Positions 32,755 to 35,883 of a stretch of 64,000 bases of DNA are shown in pieces. The translations under genes and the position numbers were made by a program. Position 1 is the first letter of the stretch. Every line of letters begins with the position of its first letter. The stretch is from Candidatus Binatia bacterium (GTDB lineage Bacteria; Desulfobacterota; Binatia; UBA9968; CAXXLF01). Where the stretch lies: assembly GCA_963664015.2 (NCBI GenBank), contig CAXXLF010000002.1, positions 960,001 through 1,024,000 of the forward strand, written 5' to 3'. Under the pieces are notes generated by a model. It was not told the origin of the DNA. It saw nothing but the letters and a program-made list of their open reading frames with translations, and did not search any database.

Positions 32755-33534
32755 ATGGACATCGTATGGTTAAAGGTTCCCGCCTGGGAAAATCTCGATG
32801 GCATGATCCACGGCTTCCTGGGTCGCAAGGGAGGGAAGAGCCTCGGGCACTACTCGAGTCTAAATCTATCTGTCAGCGTGGGGGATAATCTCCAGACCGT
32901 AAAGGACAACCTCTGCGATCTCAAGAAGGTCGTGGGCGCTCATGACCTCAGAATCGTGACCATGACCCAAAGGCATCAGGACCACATCGCCGAGGTCACG
33001 GACCATCGCGCAAAGAACGCCGGCGAGGCAGACGGGATGATAACCAAGGAACGAGAAATATTTCTTGGCGTGCTCACCGCCGATTGCGTCCCCATCCTGT
33101 TCGCCGCACGGTCTCAGAAGGTAACGGCGGTGGTTCACGCCGGATGGCGCGGTACCATGGCGGGACTGCCTGGCAAAATGATTCGCCACCTCGGGGAACG
33201 TTACCAGGTGAAGCCCGAGGATCTGGAAGTTGCATTGGGACCGGCTATCGGCCCGTGCTGCTATGAAATCAAAGAAGACGTTTCGAAACTTTTATTGGCC
33301 CGGTGGAAAGAAATCACTGAACAGAGCCTGCAGGAGAGGAACGGCAAACTGTTCCTTGATTTGAGAAAGCTCAGCATACTCCAATTGGACAATGTCGGTA
33401 TCCCTCACTCCAAGATTTTTACCATAGGCCCCTGTACCTCATGTGCATCCGATGATTTTTTCTCCTACCGCTGCGATTCGGATAATGGCGATCACGAGAC
33501 CGGCCGCCAGCTGAGCTTCATCGGCTGGCGGTAA
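32755..33534 (+). CDS. pgeF: Peptidoglycan editing factor PgeF/YfiH (laccase-domain family)
   Basis: SLNL, QRH, TADCVPIL, HAGWRG, GPAIGPCCYE, FFSYR, GRQ. Confidence 0.92.
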   Translation: MDIVWLKVPAWENLDGMIHGFLGRKGGKSLGHYSSLNLSVSVGDNLQTVKDNLCDLKKVVGAHDLRIVTMTQRHQDHIAEVTDHRAKNAGEADGMITKEREIFLGVLTADCVPILFAARSQKVTAVVHAGWRGTMAGLPGKMIRHLGERYQVKPEDLEVALGPAIGPCCYEIKEDVSKLLLARWKEITEQSLQERNGKLFLDLRKLSILQLDNVGIPHSKIFTIGPCTSCASDDFFSYRCDSDNGDHETGRQLSFIGWR

Positions 33535-33598: not shown

Positions 33599-33639
33599 TG
33601 GTTCGAGTTTCCTCACCACCCTGAGCCTGTCGATGGGTC
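33599..33639 (+). repeat. REP-like dispersed repeat, copy 1
   Basis: 39/41 identical to 42100-42140 (TGGTTCGAG.T.CCTCACCACCCTGAGCCTGTCGATGGGTC). Confidence 0.85.
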
Positions 33640-33790
33640 AAAGGGTCAGGGTCGAAGACATGACGTAGCCTCGACGGCCGCTTAACGCTTGGCTAGCAGT
33701 AAACCAGGACTAATTGCTGAGAAATGAGGCCTGAACCTGTCAGCCGAGCCCAAGGCCTGAGTTGAGCTTTTTCAATAAGTTGAAAAAAAG

Positions 33791-33819
33791 TTGACAACGG
33801 AAACCCCCTTTTGTAAACT
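33791..33819 (+). promoter_or_regulatory. Sigma70 promoter
   Basis: TTGACA (33791-33796), 17-nt spacer, TAAACT (33814-33819); A-tract upstream. Confidence 0.8.
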
Positions 33820-33825
33820 GCCCGC

Positions 33826-34006
33826 AGCAGAGAAAGGAGGTGGTCTAGTGATATATAACATAGAATTTGACTGCGAGGTGGCTGAGACTTAGGCTTCTAA
33901 GCCAGTAATCCTTGTCAGGAGCTTTTTGGGATTGTGGCGTAGGAGCCTAGAATTCCAATCAGCACACCTAGTCCTGGCCGAATATTTATTCGGCCAGGAC
34001 TTTTTT
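33826..34006 (+). ncRNA. Candidate ~180-nt small RNA / sORF-bearing RNA of unknown family
   Basis: Bounded by a consensus promoter and a perfect terminator; contains an anti-16S-tail segment, a 14-codon ORF and a 60-nt hairpin; no downstream gene on this strand. Confidence 0.65.
33848..33892 (+). CDS. 14-aa small ORF MIYNIEFDCEVAET
   Basis: GTG 7 nt after GGAGG of AGAAAGGAGGTG; TAG at 33890-33892. Confidence 0.5.
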   Translation: MIYNIEFDCEVAET

Positions 34007-34010
34007 ATTT
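33970..34010 (+). terminator. Rho-independent terminator
   Basis: Perfect 14-bp stem AGTCCTGGCCGAAT/ATTCGGCCAGGACT, 4-nt loop, followed by TTTTTATTT. Confidence 0.9.
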
Positions 34011-34047
34011 TATTTAACCAAGAGGTGGTTGAAATTATCCGATGGGC

Positions 34048-34653
34048 TCATTTCGCAAGGCGCTGCAGCGCGAATTCAGCCGCCCGGCGAACTTTCTCAT
34101 CGGCGTCCTGCAATAAGATGTAACGCAAAATCGTCACGGTTTCCTTACTGGCCGGTGGCTGCTCCCCGAGGGTATTGACCACGGCTACGCGAACCATGGG
34201 ATCTGCATCTTGAAGGGTCTGATGCAGCAACTGGTGGGCCACCTCCCGCTTATGATCCAAATACCGCAGGCAATAAACGCCCATCCTCTTCTGTAACGAG
34301 CTGCCGGTCAATAAGAGGTCAGTGAGTCTAGTAAATATACGATCATCGGTCTTCCCCAGGCGGCTCAATGCGACGACGGTTGCCCATCGGACATCGGCAT
34401 CTTCGCTCCCAAGGGCATCCACCAGGACTTCAAGGCCCGGCATGGACAAGACGCTGAGTTGGGCAAGGGTGTAGGCCACGGGCCAACGCCTTCCACGCTC
34501 CAGGCCTCGGAAAAGACCATTCAGAGCATTCTGGACCTCCGTCGTTTCCGCTCCCAACCTGACCAACGCATCGACCGCGGCACGCACTACCGCCTTATCC
34601 GAATGGGTAAGGGATTGCACCAGAGCGTCAATATTTTCGCTCGCTGCTTTCAT
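34048..34653 (-). CDS. HEAT-repeat protein
   Basis: Repeated D..VR.A...AL..L units. Confidence 0.8.
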   Translation of the reverse strand: MKAASENIDALVQSLTHSDKAVVRAAVDALVRLGAETTEVQNALNGLFRGLERGRRWPVAYTLAQLSVLSMPGLEVLVDALGSEDADVRWATVVALSRLGKTDDRIFTRLTDLLLTGSSLQKRMGVYCLRYLDHKREVAHQLLHQTLQDADPMVRVAVVNTLGEQPPASKETVTILRYILLQDADEKVRRAAEFALQRLAK

Positions 34654-34664
34654 ACGACAGTGGC

Positions 34665-35883
34665 TTATTCCTCAAGGGGGAGATTGACGGAATAAGGTTG
34701 AACCCCACCCTTCCTCACTATCGGCTCGCACGGTACCATGGTGCGCTTCGACAATTGTTTTGACGATAAACAGGCCCAACCCGGTTCCCTCGATGCGTTC
34801 AGAGCCCTTCAAACGACGGAATTGAGAAAAGAGGAGTGGGAGTTCTTCCTCTGCGATTCCGACACCCGTGTCTTTCACTGCGACGCACACATGATCATCT
34901 TCCAATTTGGAACTGACCGTGACCTTGCCGCCAGTGCGCGTGAACTTGATGGCATTGCCAATAAGATTCCAAACCACGCGATCCAGTTGAACCTCATCTC
35001 CCGGGACTTCGGGAAGCTCTTCATCCAGGTTCAGCTCCATCGTGAGCTTCTTACGCTGTGCTTCTGGCTCCTGAGCCCGGGCTGCCTACTGCAGCAGTCG
35101 GTTCACCTGCACCGGTCGGTGCTCCACTTGCATGTTTCGCGCTTCGGCGCGGCTTGCCTCGAGAAAACCCGTAACCAAGTTAACAATCCTGCGGGCGCCG
35201 TCTCGCATGCGCCGCCAAACTTCTTTTTCCGAGTCCCCCTCAACAGACTCCTCCAATTTGAGTTCCGCTTACCCCATGATGATTCCAAGGGGGGTTTTAA
35301 TATCGTGAACTAGTGCTGTCACCAGACCCATCTTCAACTGTCCTCGCTCCTTCGCAACTTCCGCCCGTCGCCTTTCTCGATTGGCGTTTTCCGTGAGATA
35401 CCCATAGAGGATGGAGACCCCGAACAGAAAGGTAATCCGGATAAAGACCTCACTGCCGAGGTTGGCTATGGCTGCTTTCTGGGAGAGAAGAAGCATCACG
35501 TAGACCGCGCTGATCAGGATTGAGCCGAGAACAATGCGCATCATGCTTTGCCCCAGGGCCGCAAGAAACATGGCAAATAAGTAAATCAGGAAGAAATCCC
35601 ATGAGAGGTCTTTGTTAAGATGAATCACGCTGGAGAGCAGCAAAGTGTCGCACAGCATCAGCACGGTGCCGAAATAAGGGTGATAGAAAATACGTTCGGG
35701 GATCCGGTAGAGCACCAGGACGCTAACCAGGAAGATAACCACCAGCCCGTGAACCCAGGGATCGTCGGAGACCTGCTCTCCCTTGGGAAAGAGGATGAGA
35801 AAAGAGGTTGCTATGGCAATCATCCACTGGAGGATGATTGCCGTGTATTGTTTATCGGCCATGTTGCTTTCGCCAGCCATCAA
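34665..35883 (-). pseudogene. Membrane sensor histidine kinase, disrupted
   Basis: TM region and H-box HDIKTPL, then in-frame TAA (35269-35271) and in-frame TAG (35086-35088), then HATPase (NAIKFT, DTGVGI, GTGLGL) and a terminal frameshift (restored end SVNLPLEE* at 34665). Confidence 0.88.

Follow-up and report, generated by a model that had tools for sequence, protein, structure and literature searches.

A divergent Ms_IGR-5 small RNA gene in a Candidatus Binatia bacterium combines an extended complement to the 16S rRNA 3' tail with a conserved micro-ORF

Introduction

What is the role of a short intergenic transcription unit whose 5' end is complementary to the 3' tail of 16S rRNA? This question is raised by positions 33791-34010 of a 64,000-nt stretch of the genome of a Candidatus Binatia bacterium (the window). 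In an original prediction, made from the letters of this stretch, the unit was described as an RNA gene carrying a 19-nt antisense to the 16S rRNA tail, and two functions were put forward for its product, i.e. capture of 30S subunits through the anti-Shine-Dalgarno sequence (as a ribosome sponge, for hibernation or to protect the 16S end) or service as an extremely strongly loaded micro-mRNA. The boundaries, family membership, distribution, rRNA complementarity, coding potential and fold of the unit were examined computationally and used to weigh the competing explanations of its function.

Results

A free-standing transcription unit at 33791-34010

Scans for promoters and terminators, together with the covariance-model matches described below, defined the following elements.

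33791-33819 (+): sigma-70-type promoter (consensus scan; hexamers kept in relatives)
33826-34010 (+): predicted transcript of ~183 nt (RF02471 alignment over 33826-34008; model R1 match over 33826-33972)
33970-34010 (+): intrinsic terminator, with a 14-bp stem, a 4-nt loop and a T-run (terminators equally placed in relatives)

The promoter consists of TTGACA (33791-33796), a 17-nt spacer and TAAACT (33814-33819), and matched 10 of 12 consensus positions at the coordinates originally predicted. Two promoter-like sites were present in 33600-34100 as compared to the 0.5 expected from shuffles, and both hexamers were conserved across 30 aligned relatives. The 14-bp terminator that had been proposed at 33970-34001 was likewise recovered by the terminator scan, with 14 pairs followed by a T-run. 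Transcription is inferred to start at the A at 33826 and to end within the T-run past the terminator. The RNA had a predicted fold energy of -77.3 kcal/mol (z = -7.28).

The upstream gene (32755-33534, +) encodes a Cu-oxidase_4/YfiH-type protein and the next ORF (34048-34653, -) is convergent and encodes a HEAT-repeat protein. As this downstream ORF is on the minus strand, there is no co-directional gene for the unit to lead into, in agreement with the original description of a stand-alone gene of ~180 nt that is not a leader. A riboswitch or leader of a downstream gene was rejected on the strand of this ORF and on the lack of conservation of the neighbours across phyla. The unit was single-copy in the genome of the window and in all five of the other genomes checked. 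On this sequence evidence, 33791-34010 is a real, free-standing, single-copy small RNA gene whose extent, from promoter to terminator, is predicted.

Membership of the Ms_IGR-5 family

A scan of the window with Rfam in gathering mode produced 0 matches; RF02471 (i.e. Ms_IGR-5) was found only in E-value mode. Positions 1-184 of the RF02471 model aligned full-length to 33826-34008 in a 551-nt search (25.1 bits, E = 8.8e-4), and a search of the whole genome returned the window hit (E = 1.3e-3) as the sole credible one, the next having E = 8.4. The window copy falls below the RF02471 gathering score (25.1 versus 45 bits). This cut-off was passed by 11 of 20 loci scanned, including two from Ignavibacteriales and two from Ca. 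Eisenbacteria, with scores of 56.3 bits for a locus of the window's own order (L008) and of 179 and 176 bits for two Mycobacterium loci (L036 and L033, respectively).

A covariance model (R1) was built from 10 same-order relatives, leaving out both the window and L008. This model matched the window over 33826-33972 with 74.4 bits (E ~1e-15), L008 with 114.2 bits and mycobacterial copies with 27-37 bits, and aligned actinobacterial and Ignavibacteriales copies end to end. Identity of the window unit to its relatives by BLAST was 72-83%. The RF02471 and R1 matches therefore indicate, at the level of sequence, that the unit is a divergent member of a family already catalogued in Rfam. The unit had been said not to be recognisable as 6S, SRP, tmRNA or a riboswitch; ARAGORN agreed on tmRNA, and the Rfam family itself had been overlooked. 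As RF02471 has no described function, the match does not speak against a ribosome-directed role. A tmRNA was rejected because ARAGORN identified 0 tRNA/tmRNA genes in the window and Rfam gave no tmRNA match.

The window copy resembles Ms_IGR-5 in its 5' ACACA/AGCAG start, its AAGGAGGUGGUC stretch, its mini-ORF, its AAUUCC motif and its terminator, in a GAGGUGGCUG ... CAGnnCACC helix and in being a stand-alone, single-copy unit. It differs in scoring below the cut-off, in lying outside Actinomycetota and in having another set of central hairpins.

According to the publications cited here, Ms_IGR-5 was first isolated in M. smegmatis by pull-down with heterologous Hfq (Li et al. 2013, via PMC4109619). 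The M. smegmatis RNA lies between MSMEG_5794 and MSMEG_5795, starts with a 5' A that is NAD-capped and was termed 'validated but yet uncharacterized' (bioRxiv 10.1101/2021.12.14.472595); it has since been re-annotated as ncMSMEG15794c (PMC10454040). Transcripts with mapped ends are reported for Streptomyces (PMC8079986, PMC8780764), and expression has also been shown in mycobacteria; ribosome footprints on Ms_IGR-5 are reported in M. abscessus and M. smegmatis (PMC4974804). The literature searched, supplements aside, yielded no description of a mini-ORF, 16S complement or function of Ms_IGR-5, and the papers found under its names list it as uncharacterised. Searches of the literature for the micropeptide strings found nothing, and nothing relevant was present among the best 15 of 74 matches on an anti-Shine-Dalgarno small RNA, sponge or 30S subunit.

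Distribution across phyla

BLAST detected the unit in 38 of 41 genomes of the window's order (its own genome included) and did not find it in the remaining G011, G025 and G029, which are 97, 87 and 92% complete, respectively. A species-level genome collection was then scanned using a pattern of the two most conserved blocks, giving at least 120 stretches. Among the stretches listed, Actinomycetota were represented by Mycobacterium, Mycolicibacterium, Saccharopolyspora, Streptosporangiaceae, Actinomadura, Nakamurella and Propionibacteriales. Others listed came from Candidatus Binatia and from MAGs labelled Deltaproteobacteria or Syntrophobacter, several of these being contigs of the window's relatives; from Ignavibacteriales, Zixiibacteriota and Ca. 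Eisenbacteria; and from one Blastocatellia, one Nitrospiria and one Leptospira weilii.

Samples of genomes were searched with a second covariance model made from 58 diverse copies. Positives amounted to at least 75 of 151 genomes for Actinomycetota (69 of 145 when the unpublished-flagged positives G213, G315, G243, G196, G277 and G283 were removed), at least 54 of 151 for the phylum holding Ignavibacteriales and at least 4 of 151 for the window's phylum, all of the latter in the window's class; these counts are lower bounds because the searches ran Infernal's stricter filters. The E. coli and B. subtilis genomes used as controls yielded no family member. Taken from locus labels and genome searches, the family appears to span at least eight phylum-level lineages.

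A protein neighbour conserved across phyla was looked for and none was found, and orientation relative to the neighbours varied among loci. The M. colombiense copy, for example, is flanked by an Aminotran_4 gene and, convergent to it, a THAP4_heme-bd gene, a neighbourhood that fits that of MSMEG_5795/Rv0812 (PMC8105722).

Complementarity to the 16S rRNA 3' tail

33831-33849 (+): extended Shine-Dalgarno site, antisense to the 16S tail (19 pairs; 33831-33843 form a 13-nt bulge between P0 and H1 in the model)

The original prediction of 19 pairs was based on the common bacterial 16S end. The single 16S gene of this genome, which is outside the window, ends ...GCGGCTGGATCACCTCCTTTCT, and is indeed complementary to the anti-16S segment AGAAAGGAGGTGGTCTAGT at 33831-33849 (+), with 19 consecutive pairs (16 Watson-Crick and 3 G-U) for the mature 3' end assumed here or 17 for the end of the Rfam model, which stops 2 nt earlier. 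The significance of this match was assessed by a pairing scan against the 21-nt 16S tail at every position on both strands of the 3.51 Mb genome. The window site had the longest consecutive run outside rDNA (19 as compared to 21 for the rDNA's own antisense) and, with a predicted duplex of -32.5 kcal/mol, ranked second in energy among non-rDNA sites, the best being -32.7 kcal/mol at C2:1785536. The 19-nt complementarity to the 16S tail exceeds chance. Pairing had also been expected to enter helix 45; we take this helix to be touched by the last pair of the segment at most, such that only a possible contact by that pair survives of this expectation.

Positions 33832-33845 were invariant in 30/30 BLAST-found relatives, as was the G-U wobble within GGUGGUC. 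The last 2-4 pairs (33846-33849) were not conserved, with one genus (18 genomes) being mismatched there and pairing over 15 nt. Across the family, 72 distinct 22-nt segments formed 14-22 consecutive pairs (mode 17) with the tail of the window's genome, which served as a proxy for all genomes. Pairing reached the last tail nucleotide in 65/72 distinct segments, where chance is ~1 in 16 and the three positions behind the count lay outside the search pattern, and extended at least 2 positions past GGTC in 58/72. Loci L032-L151 were picked by a pattern fixing 12 nt of the Shine-Dalgarno site and TGYGAGGTGNCTG; the invariance of these bases in those loci is circular because the pattern required them, and the independent evidence for it comes only from the 30 BLAST-found relatives. 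Since pairing is kept over 14-22 nt, and to the last tail nucleotide in 65/72 segments, conservation is not restricted to GGAGG, the outcome that would have counted against the original proposal.

A micro-ORF conserved in position and frame

33848-33892 (+): micro-ORF of 14 codons, opened by GTG and closed by TAG at 33890-33892 (start frame and stop position conserved)

With the start read as Met, the micro-ORF of the window copy encodes MIYNIEFDCEVAET. In 123/126 distinct family sequences, a start codon 7-13 nt past GGAGG shared its frame with the conserved stop, as compared to 1/126 for frame +1 and 0/126 for frame +2. The search pattern contained neither the start nor the stop codon; sequences of one lineage are related, and the 123/126 count for this reason overstates the number of independent events. 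The distance between the Shine-Dalgarno site and the conserved block took all three residues modulo 3 (62, 45 and 19 sequences), and indels inside the ORF of the BLAST-found relatives were of 3 or 6 nt. ORF length in the family was 11-16 codons. Stops were TAG (118) or TAA (5), with TGA absent (0), and the 123 starts comprised 69 TTG, 40 ATG and 14 GTG. In many copies the weak TTG start comes with a long 12-nt spacing, an arrangement that would suit 30S binding without efficient translation. Three sequences (L056, L119 and L141) were devoid of a canonical in-frame start. Reading by hand found an in-frame ATT at the right spacing in two of these and, in the Eisenbacteria copy L119, an ORF of comparable length that begins with TTG and is read in a different frame.

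Conservation of the encoded peptide was examined in 51 distinct 12-codon actinobacterial ORFs. Codons 2-4 were no less variable at position 2 (entropy 1.49-1.72) than at position 3 (1.02-1.64), and purifying selection at the amino-acid level (i.e. an excess of synonymous over non-synonymous change) was not found at these codons. Cys-Glu-Val was kept in 30/30 BLAST-found relatives; the GAG and GTG codons for Glu and Val were themselves invariant in 30/30, and this absence of synonymous variation points to a constraint at the nucleotide level. A second Cys recurs in relatives from the window's order, in Streptosporangiaceae and in Leptospira; the window copy has a single Cys. By these sequence comparisons, it is the position and frame of the ORF that is conserved and not the peptide, residues of the first half appearing to vary freely.

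Overlap of the micro-ORF with a covarying RNA structure

The following helices were modelled for the window copy.

33827-33830 (+): P0 5' strand (GCAG), pairing with 33871-33874 (97% of cells paired; RNAalifold agrees)
33871-33874 (+): P0 3' strand (CTGC), including the Cys codon
33844-33845 (+): H1 5' strand (TC), pairing with 33869-33870 (GA); weakly supported, with 2 pairs modelled and 88.5% of cells paired
33876-33885 (+): P1 5' strand AGGTGGCTGA, ORF codons 10-13 (93% of cells paired, 3 pairs changed on both sides)
33959-33969 (+): P1 3' strand TCAGCACACCT (covariance-model and MAFFT pair counts)
33888-33897 (+): P2 5' strand, holding the TAG stop (92% of cells paired, 9/11 pairs changed on both sides)
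33942-33950 (+): P2 3' strand GGAGCCTAG (covariance-model and MAFFT pair counts)
33926-33933 (+): 5' strand of a tentative pseudoknot, P3 (-6.7 kcal/mol, p = 0.075 in the window copy; 84% of cells paired)
33951-33958 (+): AATTCC-type motif, tentative P3 3' strand (conserved motif)

RNAalifold recovered only P0 and a small hairpin from a plain MAFFT alignment (A1), in which the 3' strands of different subgroups were one column out of register; the helices were therefore set by hand on a 10-sequence subset and then tested via a covariance model. When 58 diverse sequences were placed on the model, 93% of cells paired and 17/27 pairs had changed on both sides. The covariation score was 0.302 as compared to 0.125 for shuffles (0/500 as high) and 0.02-0.075 for slid controls, in an alignment (A5) that was fitted to the model's structure and so favours pairing. 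When 16 relatives were aligned by MAFFT without regard to structure, 90% of cells still paired, versus 29-53% for slid controls. P3 was significant in 17/53 sequences (5 of the 58 being dropped as their segments were too short), reaching -14.5 kcal/mol with p <= 0.01 in sister lineages of the order, and was not significant in the window copy. The modelled 3' domain is compact and probably pseudoknotted. An AAUUCC or AAAUCCC motif between P2 and P1 was kept from Actinomycetota to Ignavibacteriales (alignment A4).

The micro-ORF is embedded in this structure. The start codon is located in the loop of H1 in the model and the P1 5' strand is a second, shorter Shine-Dalgarno-like copy. One P0 pair was GC in 25 sequences, AU in 22, GU in 8 and CG in 1, and hence the TGY (Cys) codon varies at a single base, which covaries with the RNA 5' end.

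Discussion

In Rfam, Ms_IGR-5 is entered as an sRNA of Actinobacteria to which no function is assigned. The same single-copy gene is here shown to occur far beyond Actinomycetota, and the RF02471 threshold misses many true members when used for annotation. Evolution has kept the 16S complement, the start, the frame and stop and the helices that a ribosome would open, and has not kept the peptide. Taken together, this pattern suggests that the RNA exerts its function through contact with the ribosome.

A mechanism can be proposed from these features. The RNA 5' end and the region around the Cys codon would close the short helix P0 and, with H1, leave the 13-nt purine-rich stretch at 33831-33843 bulged out. 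This bulge and the next few bases could pair with the whole free 16S 3' tail, making the anti-16S stretch an exceptionally strong Shine-Dalgarno site for the 14-codon ORF. The final six codons, with the stop, provide the 5' strands of P0, P1 and P2 in the compact 3' domain; because these codons form 5' strands of helices, a loading and translating ribosome would have to unfold that domain. The RNA might then alternate between a folded and a ribosome-engaged state, and so read out or consume free 30S subunits or translation capacity, or hold ribosomes. Possible outputs are the stability of the RNA itself, exposure of the AAUUCC motif or the holding of ribosomes. We judge it reasonably probable that the RNA acts by capturing ribosomes and being itself translated, and not through the peptide, with both translation and unfolding inferred from sequence.

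Several other explanations compete with this reading. One alternative is a non-translated sponge or 16S-tail binder that uses 17-19 pairs to hold or protect free 30S subunits, the ORF having no role or being needed just for seating the subunit. The site is the longest complementarity in the genome outside rDNA, the conserved pairing of 14-22 nt, to the last tail nucleotide in 65/72, goes far beyond the needs of initiation, the Shine-Dalgarno stretch protrudes as a bulge flanked by covarying helices, and weak TTG starts at long spacing are common. The mycobacterial footprints (PMC4974804) fit binding as well as translation. Such a sponge has no need of a start confined to one frame (123, 1 and 0 sequences), a fixed distance to the stop or indels in multiples of three, and the gene is single-copy; we regard a sponge as unlikely. 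Of the two functions originally suggested, the strongly loaded micro-mRNA fits better than the untranslated sponge, given the in-frame starts in 123/126 sequences. The same starts, along with the Cys-Glu-Val kept in all 30 BLAST-found relatives and the second Cys recurring in several lineages (as CxxC, CxC or CC), could be taken to mean that the product is a micropeptide of 11-16 residues ending in C-E-V-x-x-x, with the RNA structure only stabilising or regulating its mRNA. This is distinctly improbable, as the conserved codons lack synonymous variation (GAG and GTG being invariant in 30 relatives), changes in the Cys codon are confined to one base that covaries with the RNA 5' end (GC 25, AU 22, GU 8) and residues 2-4 show no third-position bias. 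Moreover, the window copy has only one Cys, L119 reads in another frame and no maturation or partner gene is conserved nearby.

Two further alternatives concern base pairing in trans and control in cis. C-rich seeds are usual in the sRNAs of Hfq-less Gram-positive bacteria, and the AAUUCC/AAAUCCC motif of the 3' domain, kept between P2 and P1 from Actinomycetota to Ignavibacteriales, could be the seed by which a conventional trans-acting sRNA pairs with target mRNAs at their ribosome-binding sites, with the translated 5' portion having no more than a gating or stabilising role. Isolation of the first member with heterologous Hfq is compatible with such a role (PMC4109619). This motif is paired within pseudoknot P3 in the window's order, and the explanation leaves both the 17-19-nt 16S complement and the conserved frame unaccounted for, making it quite unlikely. 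A short ORF lying over alternative helices and followed by a terminator also resembles a leader-peptide attenuator, i.e. a cis-acting leader of a neighbouring gene. The convergent next gene, the change of neighbours from phylum to phylum (from Cu-oxidase_4 and HEAT in the window to Aminotran_4 and THAP4_heme-bd in M. colombiense) and the variable orientation relative to them render this scarcely credible; anti-terminator pairing was looked for by eye at the unit and none was seen.

Ribosome capture and translation of the RNA itself, our preferred reading, leads to a broader and more speculative proposal, i.e. that Ms_IGR-5-type RNAs are widespread riboregulators that target the ribosome and sense, hold or park ribosomes via pairing with the full free 16S tail and a mini-ORF running into a pseudoknotted domain. 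This generalisation is tentative and, at present, doubtful. If true, these RNAs would be a counterpart of hibernation or translation-capacity factors, and such a class could have been missed because the family is not detected in the E. coli and B. subtilis control genomes. The family offers testable biology in tractable hosts, i.e. M. smegmatis and Streptomyces.

Elements of the proposed mechanism are found in several known systems. In the trp and his leader-peptide attenuators, translation of a short ORF, and not its peptide, remodels overlapping helices. The window RNA similarly has a short ORF overlapping RNA helices, for which translation rather than the peptide is proposed to matter, but it lacks a regulated downstream gene and its terminator ends a discrete RNA. 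Like tmRNA, it is a stand-alone structured RNA with a mini-ORF and one or more predicted pseudoknots that may act through the ribosome; it differs in having no tRNA-like domain and in that the ORF has its own Shine-Dalgarno site and start. SgrS/SgrT, RNAIII/hld and SR1/SR1P are dual-function sRNAs with conserved, active peptides. These resemble the window RNA as sRNA-sized transcripts that are also translated, as is proposed for the latter, whereas in the present family the first half of the peptide drifts and the Shine-Dalgarno site extends over the entire 16S tail. An extended Shine-Dalgarno site that senses free anti-Shine-Dalgarno sequence is known from rpsU (bS21) of Bacteroidia. The unusual length of the site is common to both and that of rpsU reads the availability of the 16S tail; the rpsU site, however, is in the leader of a real ribosomal-protein gene, whereas that of the Ms_IGR-5 family precedes an 11-16-codon ORF alone.

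Further features of the window and its genome

A promoter scan of 33600-34100 also picked out TTGGGA-16-TAGAAT at 33926-33953, within the 3' domain of the RNA; this second promoter-like site agrees with the consensus at 9 of 12 positions and is probably a chance occurrence. Elsewhere in the window, a histidine-kinase gene on the minus strand (34672-35883) is apparently divided into three ORFs in differing frames:

35269-35883, minus strand: membrane and HisKA part
35086-35256, minus strand: ORF of 56 aa
34672-35040, minus strand: HATPase_c part

This arrangement may stem from a frameshift in the gene or from a misassembly.

Both strands of the 3.51-Mb genome were scanned with the 3' tail of its single 16S gene, and another anti-16S site was observed outside the window (G000:C2:1785536-1786000), with 16 nt of perfect complementarity and a predicted duplex energy of -32.7 kcal/mol. 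This site is followed by a frame of just 5 codons; a strong Shine-Dalgarno site preceding a 17-codon, Lys-rich micro-ORF (MAAKKKAKAKKKAKKKR) lies ~400 nt downstream.

Unusual copies of the Ms_IGR-5-type RNA

One Ca. Eisenbacteria copy (L119:1028-1159) retains the mini-ORF but in a frame unlike that of the rest of the family, with a TTG start, 13 codons and a second TAG as stop. Despite this altered frame, the RNA scored 54.9 bits against the Rfam model, above the 45-bit cut-off. L150, from a Nitrospiria MAG, carries its copy ~1.5 kb downstream of 23S and 5S rRNA genes (L150:1-631 and 2083-2181). Mycobacterial in type, with the peptide LVDLWTCEVAAS and a GC of 0.65, the copy in L063 (a record titled as a Gammaproteobacteria MAG) suggests that L063 is a mis-binned actinobacterial contig.
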